A stretch of 64,000 nucleotides of DNA from Candidatus Buchananbacteria bacterium RIFCSPLOWO2_01_FULL_39_33 (GTDB lineage: Bacteria; Patescibacteriota; Patescibacteriia; 2-01-FULL-39-33), in NCBI GenBank assembly GCA_001817505.1, contig MHIM01000028.1:383-64382 (forward strand), in the 5' to 3' direction. Below the pieces are notes generated by a model. That model ran no database searches. It saw only the letters and a list, made by a program, of their open reading frames with translations, and was not told the origin of the DNA. Positions 12,670 through 31,361 of this stretch are shown one piece after another. A program made the translations under genes and the position numbers. Each line of letters opens with the position of its first letter. The first letter of the stretch is position 1.

Positions 12670-14016
12670 ATGCAAAAAATAGTGTCGTTTTGTAAAAGGA
12701 GGGGCTTTATTTTTCCGGCCTCGGAGATTTATGGCGGCTTTGCCAATGCTTACAGTTATGGCCCTTATGGCACGGAACTCAAAAACAACATCAAAAAATT
12801 GTGGTGGAAAATGTTTGTTCAAGACCGGGCAGATATTGTTGGCTTAGACGGACCGATTTTACTCAACCCCAAAATTTGGGAGGCCTCTGGCCACACCAGC
12901 GGTTTTAATGATGCTATGGTTGACTGTCGGGCCTGCCAAAAAAGATTTCGCGCCGACCACTTAGTGGAACAAGCGACTGGCCGTGATTTGGAAGGCGATT
13001 TAAAAGCGATGTCAAAAATTTTGCATGATGAAAAAGTCAAATGTCCCAATTGCGGCCAATCCGATTGGACAAAGGTCAGGAATTTAAATCTGATGTTTAA
13101 GACCGAAATGAACGGCATTGAGGGACCGGTCTATCTTCGGCCAGAAACTGCCGGCGCTATTTTTGTGGATTTTAAAAATGTTATTGATTCTATGAGGGTC
13201 AAGATACCCTTTGGCATCGCCCAAATCGGCAAGGCCTTTAGAAACGAAATTATCGCTGGCAATTTTATTTTTCGTTTGCGGGAATTTGAGCAAATGGAAA
13301 TTGAATATTTTATTGACCCCAAGACCAAATGGGAGCCGTTGTTTGAAGGGTGGCTTAGAGACCAAGGGGAATTTGTAATGGCTTTGGGCGCCAAGAAAAA
13401 GAATTTTAGAAGATTTGAACATCCTAAAGAGAAACTTTCCCATTATTCTAAAAAGACCGTGGATATTGAATATAATTTCCCTTTTGGCTGGAGCGAGCTC
13501 TATGGCTTGGCGCATCGGGGCGATTTTGATTTAAGCCAGCATGCCAAATTTTCCGGCCAGGATTTGAGTTATTTGGACCAGATTTCTAACCACCGGTATA
13601 TCCCGCATGTTTTAGAGCCGACTTTTGGTGTTGATAGAAGTGTTTTAGTGTCTTTGGTCTCGGCTTACACTGAAGAGAAAGTAGGGGATGAGGAAAGAGT
13701 AGTTTTGAAGTTTCCTAAAAACTTAGCGCCGATTAAAGTAGCGATTTTCCCGCTTTTAAAAAACAAAGAAAAATTAGTTGAGAAAGCCAAAGGAATTTTT
13801 AATTCTTTGAAAACCGAATTAATATGCGAGTTTGATGATAACGGCAATATTGGCAAACGCTACCGCCGGCAGGATGAAATCGGCACGCCTTATTGTATAA
13901 CAGTTGATTTTGATACTTTGGATAACAACACCGTCACTGTCCGCGACCGTGATAGCATGAAGCAGGAGAGGGTGAATATCGGGGAGTTGAAAGAATGGCT
14001 TAAGAGGGAAATTTAA
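12670..14016 (+). CDS. glyQS: Glycine--tRNA ligase (dimeric alpha2-type GlyRS)
   Basis: MQKIVSFCKRRGFIFPASEIYGGFANAYSYGPYG matches the GlyRS N-terminus. Class II motifs present. AAGGA lies 10 nt upstream of this ATG. The ORF track's start at 12625 is probably too far upstream. Confidence 0.9.
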   Translation: MQKIVSFCKRRGFIFPASEIYGGFANAYSYGPYGTELKNNIKKLWWKMFVQDRADIVGLDGPILLNPKIWEASGHTSGFNDAMVDCRACQKRFRADHLVEQATGRDLEGDLKAMSKILHDEKVKCPNCGQSDWTKVRNLNLMFKTEMNGIEGPVYLRPETAGAIFVDFKNVIDSMRVKIPFGIAQIGKAFRNEIIAGNFIFRLREFEQMEIEYFIDPKTKWEPLFEGWLRDQGEFVMALGAKKKNFRRFEHPKEKLSHYSKKTVDIEYNFPFGWSELYGLAHRGDFDLSQHAKFSGQDLSYLDQISNHRYIPHVLEPTFGVDRSVLVSLVSAYTEEKVGDEERVVLKFPKNLAPIKVAIFPLLKNKEKLVEKAKGIFNSLKTELICEFDDNGNIGKRYRRQDEIGTPYCITVDFDTLDNNTVTVRDRDSMKQERVNIGELKEWLKREI

Positions 14017-14970
14017 TTGAACGCCATGAAAAACCCCGAATTTCTCAAACAAAAATACGATCTCCATAACAGCCCCGAGGCGGCTTCAGCCGCTAAGAGC
14101 AGCGAGGTTGCTATCGGCCGGAAGGTTCCTCAAAATCCCGAGGCGCGCATTGAGAATTATCTCGCTCGCCTGGAACAGCTAGCTCTTGATCCTGAAAAAA
14201 AACAGGCCAGAAAAATGTTCGGCGGTGAGCCGCGGCCTCGCGCGCTCGCCATCCTGCGGGAAATGGTAATGGACAAGTATGTCAGACCAAATAAAGATAA
14301 GCTGGCTCAAGGCGCGGCACAAGTGGAAGAGCGCGCCGCCAGAGAACTAGGCATTGAGGCGCGCTATGGCCAAGAAGAACTGGCCGAGCGCGGAGAAATA
14401 GCCGTGGCGGACTTGGAAAAGTCCCTGGACAATTGGATCTTGTATCTTTCCGATTTGAATGAGCCATACCCTGTTTGGTTCAGGTATTATGCTTTTCGCA
14501 ATATTCTTGATCTGGGCGATTATGACAAGGACAAAGGCGAATTCACCAAGCGCTCAAAAGGCAGCACGCGTCTTTTTCCCGATATTGATCGCGGTGCTCT
14601 GGCCTATGTGGAGCAGATGATAGAAGCCTCACGCGATCCCAAAATGCTAGAACGGCTCATCGGCGCCCAGCAAACAGCGGCTCGAGGAGACATACCCGCC
14701 GATCAGCTCATCACCAAAGAAAAAGCCCAAAACTTCGCCCAACTCTCATTCGCCAAGCAATACGCCGAGGGTATCCGACAAGCCGGCGAGATTACACCGG
14801 AGATGAGGGCTGAAACTAAAGGTCAGTGGGTCAAATATCAGAAAGGCACCGATCCGACAGCTTTATGGGCCTCTTTGCAAAACAAGGGCACGGCTTGGTG
14901 CACCAAGGGCTTTGCCACGGCCGAGACCCAGCTCAAAGGCGGCGACTTCTATGTCTATTACACTCTTTGA
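14017..14970 (+). CDS. Hypothetical protein, likely co-transcribed with the DGR target gene
   Basis: ORF whose stop overlaps the next gene's ATG (14951) by 20 bp; no motif recognised. Confidence 0.5.
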   Translation: MNAMKNPEFLKQKYDLHNSPEAASAAKSSEVAIGRKVPQNPEARIENYLARLEQLALDPEKKQARKMFGGEPRPRALAILREMVMDKYVRPNKDKLAQGAAQVEERAARELGIEARYGQEELAERGEIAVADLEKSLDNWILYLSDLNEPYPVWFRYYAFRNILDLGDYDKDKGEFTKRSKGSTRLFPDIDRGALAYVEQMIEASRDPKMLERLIGAQQTAARGDIPADQLITKEKAQNFAQLSFAKQYAEGIRQAGEITPEMRAETKGQWVKYQKGTDPTALWASLQNKGTAWCTKGFATAETQLKGGDFYVYYTL

Positions 14971-15943
14971 TCGCCAAGGTCAGCCCACTATTCCCCGCAT
15001 TGCCATCCGTCTGCAAGGCTCCAATATCGGAGAGGTGCGCGGCGTGGCCGATAATGATCAGAATCTGGAAGGCAATATGGCTACTATCGCCGAAGAAAAA
15101 CTCAAGGAATTTCCTGACAGCCAGCAATATGAGAAGAAAACTCAAGACATGAAACTGCTGACTGCCATTGAAAAGAAAACCAAAAACAACGAACCACTGA
15201 CCAGAAACGAACTGATCTTTCTCTACGAGATCAACTCCAAAATAGAGGGCTTCGGCTATCAAGACGATCCGCGCATCAAGGAAATCCGCGAAACCAGAAA
15301 AGTCGAAAAGGACGCATCAATTATTTTTGAATGTGAACAATCGCAAATCGCTTATGACGAGAAAGACGTCACTGAAAACACACAAGCATACATTGGAAAA
15401 TGGAACATCAAAATCTTCCAGAAAATCAGAAACTATCCGAACATCAAACATCTTTTTGAATCATTTCCGGACAAAAAAATATTCATGGAAACTCTGGAAA
15501 CTGACCCGAGTATCAATTCTCCTGAATCCGCCGAAGAAGCAATGAAAAGAAAAAAGATCTATTATTCCGATTGGGGTAAAGACATTCTTTACAAAACAGA
15601 ATTCAGTGAAGAAAAACAGTCCTATGATTTAGTGAGATTTTCCGTAGAACAACTTGGATTTCCCAAGGGTGCGACTACGCAAGAAATATACGATAAAGCG
15701 GAAAAATTAGGATTGGAACTTTGCCCGGCAGAAGTTGGTCCGCATTTGCGTTTGCAATATCCAGGCAAAGAATGGATGTTAATTGCGATGAAACAAATTC
15801 CTGACCGCTATGACTCTCCGGCTGTGTTCCTCCTGGGCACTTATGGTGGACAGCTCGTACTCTACGGCTACGATGCCAAGCCTTCGAGCAGGTGGTGTAC
15901 TGACGATGAGTTTGTTTTCCGCGTCCGCAAGTTTAAAACTTAG
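14951..15943 (+). CDS. DGR variable (target) protein; its C-terminal 42 codons form the variable repeat (VR)
   Basis: The last 127 bp of the gene (15801-15927) match the downstream template repeat, except at positions where the TR has adenine. Confidence 0.7.
   Translation: MSITLFDRQGQPTIPRIAIRLQGSNIGEVRGVADNDQNLEGNMATIAEEKLKEFPDSQQYEKKTQDMKLLTAIEKKTKNNEPLTRNELIFLYEINSKIEGFGYQDDPRIKEIRETRKVEKDASIIFECEQSQIAYDEKDVTENTQAYIGKWNIKIFQKIRNYPNIKHLFESFPDKKIFMETLETDPSINSPESAEEAMKRKKIYYSDWGKDILYKTEFSEEKQSYDLVRFSVEQLGFPKGATTQEIYDKAEKLGLELCPAEVGPHLRLQYPGKEWMLIAMKQIPDRYDSPAVFLLGTYGGQLVLYGYDAKPSSRWCTDDEFVFRVRKFKT
15801..15927 (+). repeat. DGR variable repeat (VR)
   Basis: 127-bp alignment to the TR at 16270-16396 shows 19 mismatches, every one at a TR adenine. 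The last 28 bp before the repeat end (ending gtttgttttccgcgtccg) are identical, an IMH-like region. Confidence 0.85.
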
Positions 15944-21598: not shown

Positions 21599-21659
21599 AT
21601 GTTAATAATTAATGGTTAGATCGTTTGTATTATAGCATTAGAACAATTTTTGGTAAATA

Positions 21660-21685
21660 AAAAACAGCGAAAGCTGTTTTTTGGT
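21660..21685. terminator. Bidirectional terminator hairpin
   Basis: aaaaaacagc-gaa-agctgtttttt. Confidence 0.5.
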
Positions 21686-21970
21686 GCTCCATTCTTAAAA
21701 TAGTTCGAACGCATTTCGCCGCCGGCGGCGGCGAGGAAGCCCCCCGCAAAAATGAACGGCTTCGCCGCGAACCGGACAATTTCAAGTTTTTGAATGATTT
21801 AAGTATAAATCATTCCAGTAAATTTTTCAATGAAAATGATTGAAAAATTTAATGCCTTGGCGGCAAATTCTTTTATGAAAATTCAATCCCAAAATTTGAT
21901 AAAGAAAAAGGGCTCCGAGCAGAACTGGTGTCTGTAAGGAGCCCCATTGTCGGCGGAACTTCGTTCGCCG

Positions 21971-22681
21971 TTAGCCGAGAGACAAAAGCGTGGGGTTGAG
22001 CACGCCGCCGGACTCGTTGGCCTTCTCGCCCTCGTTCCCGATCTGGGTCTTGAGGTTGTGCCAACGCCGAAGTCGGTCGCCGTGCTTCCAGCAGGCCGCG
22101 AGTGTCGAGACAGCACATTCGTACATGAAGCCCGTGATGCCCTCGAGGTTGGCCTCGTGATATGCGGCGTCCGCCACATCTTCGAGGTTTTTCCCGTTGG
22201 CCATCTCGACCTGCATGAGGCGTGCCCACCGTTCCGAGTAGGTGACCACCGCACCGCCGTAACCGTCCGTGTTCATGTCCTTGAACTTCTGCCAGCCGGC
22301 TTCGTCGGCGAGCTCAATGGTGGGGGCGTTGGCCAACTTGGCCTCGACCTTCTCGCGATGAGCACGAGCTTTCTTCTCGTACTCCACCTGCCGCTTCTGC
22401 CGCTTACGCTCGTTCTTGGCTTCGATGCGCGCGTCTTTCGCCTTGTCTTCGGCCGTGAGTTCGGCTTTCGGATAGGGTCCGACCTCGCCCTCGATGTAGC
22501 CCGATTGGGCGCGCTGTTGGTCACGGAAGATGAGTTCGGCATTGGAAGTGCCGTTCACCAGCACCGTGACGCCGTTGAGCTCCTGCTTCGCCGTGAAGTT
22601 GCCTTCCTTGGCGAGTCCGATCATCTCCCTGATGGTGTCGACGATGAGGCTGTTGTAGACGTTCGTCTCTTTGGTCTTCAT
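21971..22681 (-). CDS. Hypothetical protein encoded in a high-GC (about 60%) island; likely horizontally acquired
   Basis: The 236-aa ORF has GC-rich third codon positions. A perfect AGGAGG lies 7 nt upstream of the ATG. The composition contrasts sharply with flanking DNA of about 35-38% GC. The + strand ORFs in this interval look like antisense artefacts. Confidence 0.6.
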   Translation of the reverse strand: MKTKETNVYNSLIVDTIREMIGLAKEGNFTAKQELNGVTVLVNGTSNAELIFRDQQRAQSGYIEGEVGPYPKAELTAEDKAKDARIEAKNERKRQKRQVEYEKKARAHREKVEAKLANAPTIELADEAGWQKFKDMNTDGYGGAVVTYSERWARLMQVEMANGKNLEDVADAAYHEANLEGITGFMYECAVSTLAACWKHGDRLRRWHNLKTQIGNEGEKANESGGVLNPTLLSLG

Positions 22682-22752
22682 GCTTCTGTCCTCCTTTCAA
22701 GGTATGGTTTGATTCCATCTAGGTACTATACCCAGATTTCAATCTATCCTAG

Positions 22753-22790
22753 CATACCAGACCATAAAAGTCAAGAGGCGGCAAGCACCG
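22753..22790. terminator. Perfect 12-bp-stem hairpin flanked by A/T runs
   Basis: aaaa-gtcaagaggcgg-caagca-ccgcctcttgac-tttt. Confidence 0.55.
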
Positions 22791-22809
22791 CCTCTTGACT
22801 TTTCCTACG

Positions 22810-22894
22810 TGGTGCCGAAGGAGAGAATCGAACTCTCACATCTTGCGATACACGATTTTGAGTCGTGCGCGTCTACCAATTCCGCCACTTCGGC
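22810..22894 (-). tRNA. tRNA-Leu (anticodon CAA), class II with long variable arm, CCA encoded
   Basis: Reverse complement reads GCCGAAGUGGCGGAAUUGGUAGACGCGCACGACUCAAAAUCGUG...GAGAGUUCGAUUCUCUCCUUCGGCACCA. Confidence 0.85.
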
Positions 22895-22980
22895 CTACTA
22901 TCAACAATTAACTTTTAACATTTAACTATTAACAAAATTGTTAAATATTAATTATTAATAGTTAACAGTTATTATCGTAG

Positions 22981-23130
22981 CAGGGGCCGGAGTTGAATCG
23001 GGTTGTTTCTGGACAACGCTGAATGCCTGCTTGCCGGTAGATAGGCTTGTATTTGCTCGTTTTCATTGACACTCATCTTCGCTAATGCTCGTTTCGTTTC
23101 CGTCCTCGCCTATTTGATATTAAGTAAGTT
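22981..23130 (-). other. Degenerate tRNA-derived element E0: 3' T-arm/acceptor copy of tRNA-Met(A) attached to unrelated sequence
   Basis: The minus-strand 3' end ...CCCGAUUCAACUCCGGCCCCUGC closely matches the 3' end of the tRNA at 23166-23237, but its T-stem is broken. Confidence 0.3.
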
Positions 23131-23165
23131 AATAGTTAACTGTTAATTGTTTATTGTTAACCCTG

Positions 23166-23237
23166 TAGCAGGGGCCGGAGTTGAACCGGCGACCAATGGC
23201 TTATGAGTCCACTGCTCTACCACTGAGCTACCCTGCC
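23166..23237 (-). tRNA. tRNA with CAU anticodon (Met or lysidine-Ile2); no encoded CCA
   Basis: Reverse complement reads GGCAGGGUAGCUCAGUGGUAGAGCAGUGGACUCAUAAGCCAUUGGUCGCCGGUUCAACUCCGGCCCCUGCU. Anticodon loop is CUCAUAA; G1.U72 wobble. Confidence 0.75.
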
Positions 23238-23260
23238 GTGATTTAATCTTTCTAAGTTGT

Positions 23261-23395
23261 TAATCCACTGCTCTTCCAGGGCAGCGCCAGATGCTCGCGC
23301 TTGCTCGCATCTGTCGGCGTCTCAGCTTCGCCTTCGGCTCGCTTCACTGCTGCCCGTCGCTTCGCGACCCACTAAGCTACCCTGCCAGAAAATAA
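23261..23395 (-). other. Element E1: the first 18 nt of tRNA-Met(A) (acceptor and D-arm) fused to a roughly 98-nt GC-rich insertion, truncated after an anticodon-stem-like segment
   Basis: Minus strand reads GGCAGGGUAGCUUAGUGG + GC-rich 98 nt + AGAGCAGUGGA, then diverges. Confidence 0.3.
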
Positions 23396-23490
23396 TTTTC
23401 AATTTTCAATTTTTAAATAATTTAAAAATGATTAATTTAAAAATTAAATCATTGTTTAGAAATTAGAAATTAGAAATTTTAAAATTAGTA

Positions 23491-23600
23491 TCTGTTGCGG
23501 GGGTGGGATTCTTGTCCTGGGCAGCGTCCAGTCCTGCGCCAGCTCGGACTGGCCGACGCTCGTCTTCGCCTCGCTTCTGCCCGTGCGAATCCTCTCCTGA
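23491..23600 (-). other. Element E2: GC-rich sequence ending in a copy of the 3' T-arm/acceptor of the tRNA at 23651-23722
   Basis: The + strand begins tgttgcgggggtgggattc, identical to the first 19 nt of the tRNA at 23651 onward, then continues as GC-rich sequence (cttgtcctgggcagcgtccagtcctgcgcc...). Confidence 0.3.
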
Positions 23601-23650
23601 AAATAATTCATTATTAACCAAATAGGCATCTTGATTATCCGAAATTTTTG

Positions 23651-23722
23651 TTGCGGGGGTGGGATTCGCACCCACGACCTCCAGGTTATGGGCCTGGCGA
23701 GCTGCTACTGCTCTACCCCGCA
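23651..23722 (-). tRNA. tRNA with CAU anticodon (elongator Met or Ile2); atypical D-loop and T-loop; no encoded CCA
   Basis: Reverse complement reads UGCGGGGUAGAGCAGUAGCAGCUCGCCAGGCCCAUAACCUGGAGGUCGUGGGUGCGAAUCCCACCCCCGCAA. Anticodon loop is CCCAUAA; U1-A72 pair. Confidence 0.6.
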
Positions 23723-23815
23723 CAGAACATTGTATCATAAAAATTTAATTTTGACAAGGTAATTAAGATAATTTTTATTTTTAAAGTTCCATTATTTATG
23801 ATACTATAAATTAAT

Positions 23816-31145: not shown

Positions 31146-31149
31146 AACT

Positions 31150-31254
31150 TCAATATGAGGAGATGGATTTCTGACGATTACGCCTTTGGGTCAAGTGACC
31201 GTTTAAGTCGTCAGTGAAATCTTCTTGGGAGAACCCAAGCATCTCCTCTCCCAA
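31150..31254 (+). ncRNA. Candidate structured RNA of about 100 nt with a three-way junction and unknown function
   Basis: The closing helix pairs GAGGAGAUG with CAUCUCCUC. The enclosed stem CUGACGA/UCGUCAG contains the hairpin GGUCA-AG-UGACC. A further hairpin CUUGGG-AGAA-CCCAAG follows. Confidence 0.3.
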
Positions 31255-31343
31255 TTTACGGGGTGTAGCTTAAAGGGTTAGAGCCCCTGCCATGGATGGT
31301 ACATGGATGTGGGGGAGATGGTGGTCCAAATCCGCCCATCCCG
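31255..31343 (+). tRNA. tRNA-like gene with canonical acceptor, D-arm, T-arm and ACCA end, but an 18-nt anticodon loop holding a 7-nt direct repeat; pseudo-tRNA or noncanonical tRNA
   Basis: CGGGGUG/CAUCCCG acceptor. D-arm UAGCUUAAAGGGUUAGAGC. T-arm GGUGG-UCCAAAU-CCGCC. Anticodon stem CCUGC/GUGGG (two G.U pairs) encloses CAUGGAU-GGUA-CAUGGAU. Confidence 0.35.
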
Positions 31344-31361
31344 ACCAAACTGCCTCTTCAG

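Follow-up and report, generated by a model that had tools for sequence, protein, structure and literature searches.

Several kinds of inserted DNA are known from transfer RNA (tRNA) genes. Genomic islands and prophages that integrate there leave an intact tRNA gene, the inserted DNA and a direct repeat of the gene's 3' end that starts in the T-loop, with the resident 3' end displaced, and the T-loop is reportedly one of the sublocation classes of tyrosine-integrase integration into tRNA genes. Homing-endonuclease cassettes can bring a replacement gene end with them, as do a GIY-YIG element in Allomyces atp6 and SegB of phage T4 in a tRNA cluster. The single-stranded attP of the CTX phage is a forked hairpin of two inverted dif-like sites, and archaeal non-canonical tRNA introns occupy the D-loop, the variable loop and the T-loop. 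Here we describe three GC-rich segments, E2, E1 and E0, in a tRNA operon of Candidatus Buchananbacteria bacterium RIFCSPLOWO2_01_FULL_39_33 (contig MHIM01000028.1, positions 383 to 64,382; this whole stretch of 64,000 nucleotides is the window). We hold it to be probable, though with real reservations, that they are three insertions of one non-autonomous element family specialised on tRNA genes, in which one intact gene is always left. The family is widespread in Patescibacteria (the candidate phyla radiation, CPR) and apparently undescribed, as the searchable literature, whose coverage is incomplete, yielded no description of it, but analogues only.

The arrangement left by integrating islands recurs here, but the family has no integrase, measures 100-250 bp, uses one structured core for any tRNA and, again unlike the islands, includes an antisense copy of the T-loop and T-stem, repeats of 17 to >60 nt and a variant, E1, that is built on a 5' fragment. 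As in homing cassettes, a displaced host-gene fragment lies beside a restored gene that may be partly imported, and relatives carry GIY-YIG open reading frames (ORFs) at the place equivalent to E1, between a tRNA 5' fragment and the intact tRNA; E0-E2, however, are without an ORF, and their conserved part is a folded nucleic acid. Like the CTX attP, the element consists of an inverted target copy, a spacer of ~100 nt and a direct target copy, and a single strand can mimic a duplex target, but there is neither an Xer-type site nor a phage genome. Moreover, the arms correspond to whichever tRNA they adjoin, acceptor stem included, and so are made or corrected at the site itself. The tRNA niche and the insertion points in D-, variable and T-loop are shared with group I introns of bacteria and with the non-canonical tRNA introns and split tRNAs of archaea; unlike them, the family matches no intron model, is too small for group I, resides in bacterial hosts, and its element-bearing tRNA copies are truncated pseudogenes beside an intact gene.

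Accounts of yeast mitochondrial GC clusters, GC-rich hairpin elements of an AT-rich genome (PMC4478555), of repetitive hairpin-forming elements in sponge mitochondria (PMC2800124) and of bacterial repetitive extragenic palindromic (REP) repeats and miniature transposable elements with inverted repeats (MITEs) (PMC3184786) describe sequences that are likewise short, non-coding, GC-rich, hairpin-forming, multi-copy and polymorphic in insertion, within AT-rich intergenic DNA and small genomes. Unlike these sequences, the E0-E2 family is conserved across phyla, has a hairpin that covaries, is almost exclusive to tRNA genes, and has arms copied from its target rather than intrinsic terminal repeats with a short fixed duplication. 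There are neither such intrinsic repeats, the inverted arms changing with the T-loop and T-stem of each tRNA, nor a fixed short duplication of the MITE type, the duplications ranging from 17 to >60 nt. The family thus lacks what defines each known kind, be it intrinsic repeats, an integrase, an endonuclease gene or a match in Rfam, and it is a new, widespread, tRNA-specialised structured element.

In what follows, tRNA positions are given in the standard tRNA numbering (G53, A58, G18-G19 and so on), and L-numbers label the genome and metagenome loci that were compared. The tRNA operon and E0, E1 and E2 all lie on the minus strand of the window, in the 5' to 3' order tRNA-fMet, E2, E1, tRNA-Met, E0, tRNA-Leu. 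All three segments fall between one promoter-like site and one terminator hairpin, and their RNA would be transcribed with the tRNAs and then trimmed off as spacer RNA. Read along the minus strand, the features of the locus are:

23729..23757, minus strand: promoter-like site, TTGTCA-17-TG-TACAAT (10/12 matches, extended -10), putative promoter of the operon
23651..23722, minus strand: intact tRNA-fMet (CAU), partner gene of E2 (ARAGORN; Rfam tRNA 61.7 bits)
23593..23650, minus strand: AT-rich spacer from tRNA-fMet to E2, part of the inserted block, not alignable to the L013 flank
23493-23592, minus strand: E2 as a whole
23583..23592, minus strand: E2 antisense arm GGATTCGCAC, reverse complement of tRNA-fMet G53-C62 (GTGCGAATCC), abutting the core
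23516..23582, minus strand: E2 core, with P1 GGGCAG/CTGCCC, AAGCGAG, CGAGCGTCG, P3 CCAGTCC/GGACTGG and CGCTGCCCAGG
23493..23511, minus strand: E2 sense arm GAATCCCACCCCCGCAACA, displaced 3' end that repeats the terminal 19 nt of tRNA-fMet in direct orientation
23386-23494: AT-rich palindromic spacer between E1 and E2 (14% GC; 53-nt arms, 72% complementary)
23257-23386, minus strand: E1 as a whole
23369..23386, minus strand: E1 left flank, tRNA-Met positions 1-18 copied with one mismatch
23356..23368, minus strand: P0, the 5' hairpin of E1's own, GTCGC-GAA-GCGAC, identical in L033 and L104
23276..23355, minus strand: E1 core, variant GGGCAGCAGTGAAGCGAG, P3 CAGATGC/GCATCTG, sitting after D-loop G18-G19
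23257..23275, minus strand: E1 right flank, positions 20-37 of tRNA-Met, the anticodon loop being mutated (GTGGATTAACAA versus GTGGACTCATAA)
23166..23237, minus strand: intact elongator tRNA-Met (CAU) (ARAGORN; Rfam tRNA 68.3 bits)
22977-23117, minus strand: E0 as a whole
23004..23117, minus strand: E0 core, decayed by G/C-to-A/T changes (covariance model R1, see below)
22977..23002, minus strand: E0 sense arm CCCGaTTCAACTCCGGCCCCTGCTAC, T-arm plus acceptor 3' strand of tRNA-Met, copied
22813..22894, minus strand: tRNA-Leu (CAA), the final gene of the operon (ARAGORN; Rfam)
22766..22803, minus strand: perfect 16-bp hairpin after tRNA-Leu (inverted-repeat search), likely the operon terminator

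An equivalent promoter-like site, TTGCCA...TACAAT, lies upstream of tRNA-fMet in both relatives used below, L013 and L011. The hairpin at 22766..22803 was missed by a terminator scan because its T-run is short. At least six metagenome contigs that were assembled independently contain the locus with 100% identity, and it is therefore not an assembly artefact. As a separate observation, several metagenome contigs of the same population (L007-L010) stop inside or beside the tRNA-fMet/E2 region, which is consistent with repeats or population variation breaking assembly here. Public gene calls have laid a 91-aa or a 52-aa ORF over tRNA-fMet/E2; the ORFs at E0-E2 are spurious throughout, running across tRNA and hairpins.

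The tRNA-end identities reported by the first-pass annotation, which had been made from the letters alone, all exist where it had placed them and exceed chance in a repeat search and in BLAST within the window. E1 does carry the first 18 nt of tRNA-Met, with one mismatch (GGCAGGGTAGCTtAGTGG), and E0 does end with the T-arm and acceptor 3' strand of that tRNA (17 nt exact, BLAST E=4.5e-4). The 19-nt identity between E2 and tRNA-fMet is perfect as well (23493-23511 equals 23649-23667, 19/19; BLAST E=2e-5 within the window), but it had been taken for the first 19 nt of the gene; the genes being on the minus strand, it is the 3'-terminal 19 nt. All three copies thus have in their flank a partial copy of an adjacent intact tRNA gene on the same strand, and tRNA-Met is bracketed by its own 5' fragment in E1 and its own 3' fragment in E0. 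A direct repeat of the tRNA 3' end brackets the insert at E2 (19/19) and at E0 (17 exact within 26 nt), while E1 duplicates the 5' end. At E0 the exact 17 nt lie inside a 62-nt repeat of 76% identity that extends into the tRNA-Met flank, such that ~40 nt after the sense arm resemble that flank; the antisense arm of E0 is no longer recognisable. E1 is the 5' half of tRNA-Met with ~93 nt inserted in the D-loop: after the insert, AGAGCAGTGGA resumes at tRNA-Met positions 20-31, with a weak continuation to position 37 (alignment score 12 over 18 nt), where the fragment stops. The same D-loop site is used in L048, L019 and L079. The atypical loops that had been noticed in the intact tRNA-fMet are real, namely a D-loop AGTAGCA without GG (G18-G19) and a T-loop TGCGAAT with G55. 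Since they are identical in L011 and L013, they are conserved in the clade and indicate no defect.

The three inserts are related to each other. E1 and E2 share 86% identity over 66 aligned nt, and their apical hairpins differ by compensatory changes (CAGATGC/GCATCTG versus CCAGTCC/GGACTGG). A covariance model, R1, built from an alignment (A2) of 81 sequences, scores E2 at 81 bits over 23506-23594 and E1 at 63 bits over 23266-23367, both being seed sequences; E0, which was left out of model building, scores 22.7 bits (E=3e-4). E0 also keeps an extra hairpin, CCTATCTACCGGCAAGCAGG, that is present in the copy at the tRNA-fMet of L011, to which it is 77% identical over 96 nt. E0 is therefore a decayed third copy, and the possibility that the inserts are mutually unrelated segments was rejected. 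R1 has exactly three matches in the 64 kb, E2, E1 and E0, and BLAST and motif search likewise gave no further copies in the window. Against shuffled sequences the folds of E2 (z=-2.9, with the antisense arm predicted to pair with the sense arm) and E1 (z=-2.4) are more stable, whereas that of E0 is no better (z=+0.5).

Rfam 15 covariance-model scans give the inserts no match to any family, be it group I or II introns, ribozymes, rRNA, RNase P, tmRNA or the guide RNAs of IS605/IscB. A cmscan of 22700-23800 at E<=10 returned the three tRNAs and noise only, a gathering-threshold scan of the whole window returned nothing in E0-E2, and ARAGORN and the Rfam tRNA model called the three operon tRNAs and none in E0-E2.

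Across all copies the core has the consensus GGGCAG-AAGCGAG...CGAGCGTCGA-hairpin-CGCTGCCCWGG, that is, a helix P1 (GGGCAG/CTGCCC), AAGCGAG, CGAGCGTCGA, the covarying hairpin P3 and CGCTGCCCWGG. Double compensatory changes occur at 10 of the 18 predicted pairs (at one pair, for example, CG in 38 sequences and UA in 35), and CGAGCGTCGA is at least 90% conserved although the search pattern did not impose it. Core lengths range from 64 to 99 nt and differ by non-multiples of 3; this variation, together with the compensatory changes, led us to reject coding potential of the inserts. The high GC of E0-E2 comes from the hairpins and not from a foreign donor.

The search pattern, GGGCAG-N0-5-AAGCGAG-N40-70-CGCTGCCCWGG, was drawn from four good copies and matched 48 loci in contigs from one genome per species and 64 in metagenome contigs, with about two chance matches estimated for the genome scan. 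Likely chance matches are L036, L053, L060 and L061 in that scan and L085 and L087 in the metagenome scan; they lie in GC-rich DNA, and those with titles are non-CPR. The other matched loci are titled Patescibacteria (Moran-, Magasanik-, Komeili-, Uhr-, Kerfeld- and Saccharibacteria), apart from some labelled 'uncultured Gammaproteobacteria', a label we think wrong because in one of them, L039, core and flanks are almost the same as at L046, a locus of a Patescibacteria metagenome-assembled genome. The full pattern has no match in viral contigs, where a simpler pattern gave one chance match inside a GC-rich coding region, and BLAST of E2 against GenBank phages gave none.

A profile found 90 distinct copies in all. 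ARAGORN calls an intact tRNA on the same strand within 150 nt of the core at 57 of these 90, upstream at 47 and downstream at 10; the locus edge is reached at 9. Several of the remaining copies follow tRNAs that ARAGORN missed, two of which carry group I introns, and in others a tRNA 3' end is visible on inspection. The tRNAs that adjoin cores have at least 16 identities. The two introns lie just upstream of the cores of L044 (3806-4086) and L059 (5549-5765; Rfam 72 and 55 bits, respectively), presumably inside the tRNA that the core follows, and the tRNA genes of these genomes have been struck by several kinds of insert.

The junctions are of two types, which share a size of ~100-250 bp and a non-coding, GC-rich, hairpin-forming character. 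In the T-loop type, to which E2 and E0 belong and for which the figures refer to 46 copies with an intact upstream tRNA, the order is tRNA, spacer, antisense arm, core, an optional second hairpin and sense arm. The spacer is 54-74 nt long (20-33 nt in a minority) and usually holds the tRNA's own intrinsic terminator. The antisense arm always abuts the core and is anchored at G53 of the adjacent tRNA in 39 of the 46 copies, which is to say in all where it is recognisable; since the two bases that end it, AC, are universal, its true end could be position 55. The exact match is mostly 9-13 nt long, comprising G53, the T-loop and the T-stem 3' strand, and it tracks the T-loop of each tRNA (TTCGAAT, TTCGATT, TTCAAAT, TTCAACT, TGCGAAT, TTCGACT, TTCGAGT). 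Long arms are few (17-19 nt in L023, L029 and L032), and in L084 arm and terminator palindrome together make 38 nt. The arm/core junction of E2 is present in L011 as well. Most copies of this type have a second small hairpin, framed by ACAAGGAG...GACGCGGAA, and a sense arm that starts at A58 (56-58), reaches the tRNA 3' end and continues 0-45 nt beyond. Long repeats include, and hence duplicate, the terminator in L026, L047, L090 and L107, while in 6 of 20 inspected loci (L020, L097, L022, L027, L049 and L051) the terminators before and after the element are unrelated.

The D-loop/variable-loop type, represented by E1, has no second hairpin but a small 5' hairpin of its own, GTCGC-GAA-GCGAC in E1, L033 and L104, with covarying variants elsewhere (TCGCAACGCGA, TTGCGAAGCAA, GTCGTAATCGAC and others). 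Its host is a 3'-truncated tRNA copy, 26-78 nt upstream of the intact gene, with the insertion after D-loop G18-G19 (E1, L048, L019 and L079) or in the variable-loop/T-stem region (L088, L104 and L080). Six cores with their own hairpin (L033, L024, L040, L056, L058 and L112) lie away from any detected RNA gene; they are preceded by a CCTCC..GGAGG(G)TC hairpin, of which GGAGG(G)TC is repeated after the element. The context suggests that the target is defined by its sequence and is also present in tRNAs, in the variable-loop region.

A standard transposon with target duplication, an IS200/IS605-type insertion after the T-loop pentanucleotide and a generic T-loop att site were all ruled out, as the left flank is tRNA antisense and both arms are tRNA-specific. 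Reverse transcription of a mature tRNA is disfavoured: the window repeats have no added CCA (GCAACAg), and repeats elsewhere enter the flank and the terminator.

Comparison with relatives bears most directly on how the copies arose. The ParA encoded next to the operon marks the organism as a member of the Patescibacteria, Buchanan- and Falkowbacteria-like names being among its matches. The surroundings of the tRNA operon are syntenic in L011 (ParA 95% identical) and L013 (ParA 92% identical). The site is empty in L013, where tRNA-fMet, a 180-nt AT-rich spacer, tRNA-Met, 5 nt and tRNA-Leu follow one another, with no core match and no Tad4 gene, and where the AT-rich spacer 23593..23650 of the window has no counterpart. 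AT-rich hairpins fill this empty-site spacer, as an AT-rich palindrome fills the gap between E1 and E2. L011, in turn, has one element after tRNA-fMet and another after tRNA-Met, and at the place equivalent to E1 it has a 9-nt tRNA-Met 5' fragment, a GC-rich hairpin and a 78-aa GIY-YIG ORF (Pfam PF01541, E=2e-15). Since the sequence after the displaced tRNA-fMet 3' fragment of L011 is homologous to the L013 flank after the intact gene, the element block in L011 is an insertion. Between themselves the two L011 cores share 99% identity, but only 76-87% with the window copies, which argues for turnover rather than simple vertical descent. Elsewhere, too, cores group by genome and not by tRNA type (Glu, Glu and Leu in JBAZBY01; Leu and Gly in CAWDHY01), copies stand in tandem in L025, L029 and L084, and copy number and tRNA partner vary between genomes. 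The tRNA-Met 5' fragment of L011 keeps A7 like the empty relative, whereas its intact tRNA-Met has G7:C66.

It is this presence and absence in relatives, the near-identical copies at different tRNAs of one genome, the tandem copies and the decay of E0 that lead us to read E2, E1 and E0 as insertions. Each would come with a partial duplication by which one intact tRNA gene is spared, and for this reason such insertions would survive. The element would be selfish DNA, dependent on an enzyme acting in trans or on the replication and repair machinery of the host. Template switching or break repair may create new copies with target-specific arms: a nascent strand would fold back, enter a donor copy via the universally conserved T-loop sequence (generating the antisense arm), copy the core from the donor and return through the sense arm. 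Serial template switching or break repair is proposed because the antisense arm ends at 53, the sense arm starts at 58 and, at a few loci, one long palindrome runs from G53 through the terminator loop and back. The finished unit, bracketed by tRNA sequence on both sides, would own portable homology arms, and recombination could copy it into the same tRNA locus of other cells or genomes, as free-standing homing cassettes spread. The unrelated terminators, and A7 as opposed to G7:C66 in L011, suggest that units at these other loci are imported between genomes by recombination.

Several observations weigh against this account. Mobility is deduced from comparison of genomes. Conservation of the unpaired CGAGCGTCGA across phyla suggests a function beyond that of inert DNA. 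On the tRNA-sense strand of the alignment 32 G-U/U-G cells, which are not independent of one another, outnumber 8 A-C/C-A cells, and because of this excess selection appears to act on that strand, be it as RNA or as single-stranded DNA. Clustering of all ORFs within 3 kb of 79 cores gave no consistently linked transposase, nuclease or recombinase; the only recurrent mobile-type families there are small GIY-YIG proteins and two large serine recombinases, the latter near only 2 cores. Moreover, domain-only GIY-YIG ORFs occur in 16 loci (L011 and 15 others beside tRNAs) and are tRNA-associated on their own account. Finally, template switching predicts long antisense arms that reach the terminator, while most stop at ~13 nt, and for this over-prediction we hold the mechanism loosely.

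If the insertion reading holds, Patescibacteria harbour a phylum-wide family of very small structured elements whose home is the tRNA gene, which they never destroy, and the universal T-loop and the conservation of tRNAs would serve reduced genomes as portable targeting and homology arms. For annotation, the copies create spurious ORFs, pseudo-tRNAs and contig breaks. The compact, covarying nucleic-acid fold with its precise junctions at tRNA positions 53 and 58 is experimentally testable.

It is also conceivable, if on balance unlikely, that the core functions as a non-coding RNA produced together with the tRNAs, such as a module for processing, stability or decoy, and that mobility is secondary. 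The closing helix would then come from the tRNA's own T-arm and acceptor, and the duplications would exist because the RNA needs them. Strong covariation, the conserved joining sequences and the G-U excess (32 versus 8) on the tRNA-sense strand all agree with such a role, as does the position of the three window copies between one promoter-like site and one terminator hairpin, and the antisense and sense arms can pair, as they do in the fold of E2. However, at most loci an intrinsic terminator separates the tRNA from the element, which should make transcription poor, the close relative L013 lives without the element, copies such as E0 decay, and copy number and tRNA partner differ between genomes.

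More doubtful is a scenario in which the antisense arm acts as a guide. Perhaps it belongs to a nucleic acid-directed homing system for T-loops, in which an RNA or single-stranded DNA scaffold recruits a nuclease, for example the GIY-YIG proteins that consist of the catalytic domain only, or perhaps to a minimal ribozyme intron that reverse-splices at 57|58, the 5' guide pairing across this point like the internal guide sequence of group I and the element entering a pre-tRNA. A target-specific antisense segment of 9-13 nt does lie directly 5' of a conserved scaffold and straddles the point of insertion (53-57 | 58-65), ordered as an internal guide would be, the insertions sit in the D-loop after G19, in the variable loop and in the T-loop, as those of archaeal non-canonical tRNA introns do, and catalytic-domain-only GIY-YIG proteins are encoded beside the same tRNAs. 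Yet every element-bearing tRNA has an intact twin nearby, and the direct repeats enter the downstream flank and thus point to duplication at the DNA level rather than to copying of a mature tRNA. Arms of 17-38 nt, of which there are a few, exceed what co-evolution of a guide could produce, no ribozyme family matches in Rfam, and a GIY-YIG gene is within reach of only about one in eight cores. There is no endonuclease ORF inside E0-E2 in the window.

The GIY-YIG genes themselves form a recurrent companion of tRNA genes. They are 65-91 aa long, match the Pfam catalytic domain only and lie immediately beside tRNAs (L011 3864-4100, L026, L028, L041, L115, L099, L122 and others), often between a tRNA 5' fragment that holds other GC-rich hairpin inserts and the intact copy of the same tRNA; in L041 ~70 nt of the upstream flank are duplicated as well. 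These small proteins are obvious candidates for making breaks. A second family of GC-rich palindromes, for example CCCGCCTCGCGTCGACGAGCTCCGCGAGTCGAGGCGGG, has entered fragments of tRNAs at the D-arm, the anticodon loop or the acceptor part, in L026 (pseudo-tRNA-Glu), L047 and L054 (tRNA-His 3' fragment), L041, L011 and L122.

The first-pass annotation had favoured attL/attR-type scars, left by repeated integration and decay of high-GC elements at the tRNA genes, and had thought this consistent with the neighbouring GC island. Its observation of tRNA-end duplications that flank inserted DNA beside an intact tRNA stands, but the history it implies, of larger integrase-borne islands that later decayed, is very improbable. 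Direct repeats of tRNA 3' ends that start in the T-loop are indeed what integrative elements leave, a GC-rich cassette with a Tad4-like gene lies beside tRNA-Leu here and beside tRNAs elsewhere, and on one contig tRNA-His and a core are separated by 1.6 kb of cargo. However, only 140-190 bp lie between the repeats, without a remnant of an integrase or other ORF; their content is a complete conserved unit whose structure covaries, the same core stands beside at least 16 tRNA identities, and E1 duplicates a 5' end. Moreover, L011 has elements and no Tad4-like gene, so that the elements are independent of the GC island, which is a separate tRNA-adjacent cassette with these features:

21655-22766, minus strand: GC-rich cassette (~60% GC) of promoter-like site, Tad4-like gene, distal hairpin and terminator
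21971-22681, minus strand: Tad4-like gene, GC-rich, with its own promoter-like site (Pfam PF25186, E=1e-28)
21700-21785, minus strand: distal GC-rich three-way hairpin of the cassette, its arms containing GGTTCG/CGAAC, followed by TGGAGCACCA and a terminator

The same cassette with its distal hairpin lies beside tRNA-Leu(CAA) in another genomic context, L127, and the Tad4-like gene lies beside tRNA-Val(CAC) in L128 too; it is absent from L011 and L013. Homologues of 55-88% identity are common, the few named ones being from Patescibacteria, and most are on 1-kb contigs. The contig with cargo, CAYPXF010000009.1 (L021 and L018), reads tRNA-His, two ORFs (1.6 kb), core and tRNA-His 3' fragment, and continues with a further unit, in which a paralogous ORF and a core identical to the first precede one more tRNA-His 3' fragment. 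Such units look like cargo-bearing tandem cassettes, each ending in a core.

That E0-E2 are functional but unusual tRNA genes, as insertion-bearing paralogues (the other possibility raised at first) or as split halves joined in trans, is scarcely credible: E1 has the acceptor 5' strand and D-arm of such a paralogue, a T-arm with the acceptor 3' strand is present in E0 and E2, and there is another odd tRNA in the window (31259-31344), but ARAGORN and the Rfam tRNA model call none of the three, E1 has a mutated anticodon loop and no 3' half, E2 and E0 lack everything 5' of the T-loop and hold positions 50/57 to 76 only, none of the three can form a cloverleaf, also when the insert is removed, a complementary leader by which E1, the Met 5' half, could pair with E0 is absent, and intact genes for both tRNAs are adjacent.

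The odd tRNA-like gene at 31259-31344 (plus strand, 86 nt) scores 38 bits in Rfam, while ARAGORN is silent; it has a good acceptor stem and an encoded ACCA, and its anticodon region, CCATGGATGGTACATGGATG, looks like a tandem duplication of 11 nt that surrounds a CAT anticodon. The gene may be a tRNA-Ile(CAU) with an insert, or a pseudogene. A hairpin-rich spacer of ~110 nt (31146-31258, plus strand) leads to it from tRNA-Cys; with a closing stem GAGGAGATG/CATCTCCTC it folds at -39 kcal/mol (z=-3.8), has no Rfam match and belongs to another family than the E0-E2 core. A second stretch of raised GC, 52% against a background of ~40%, lies at 14001-15000 of the window.

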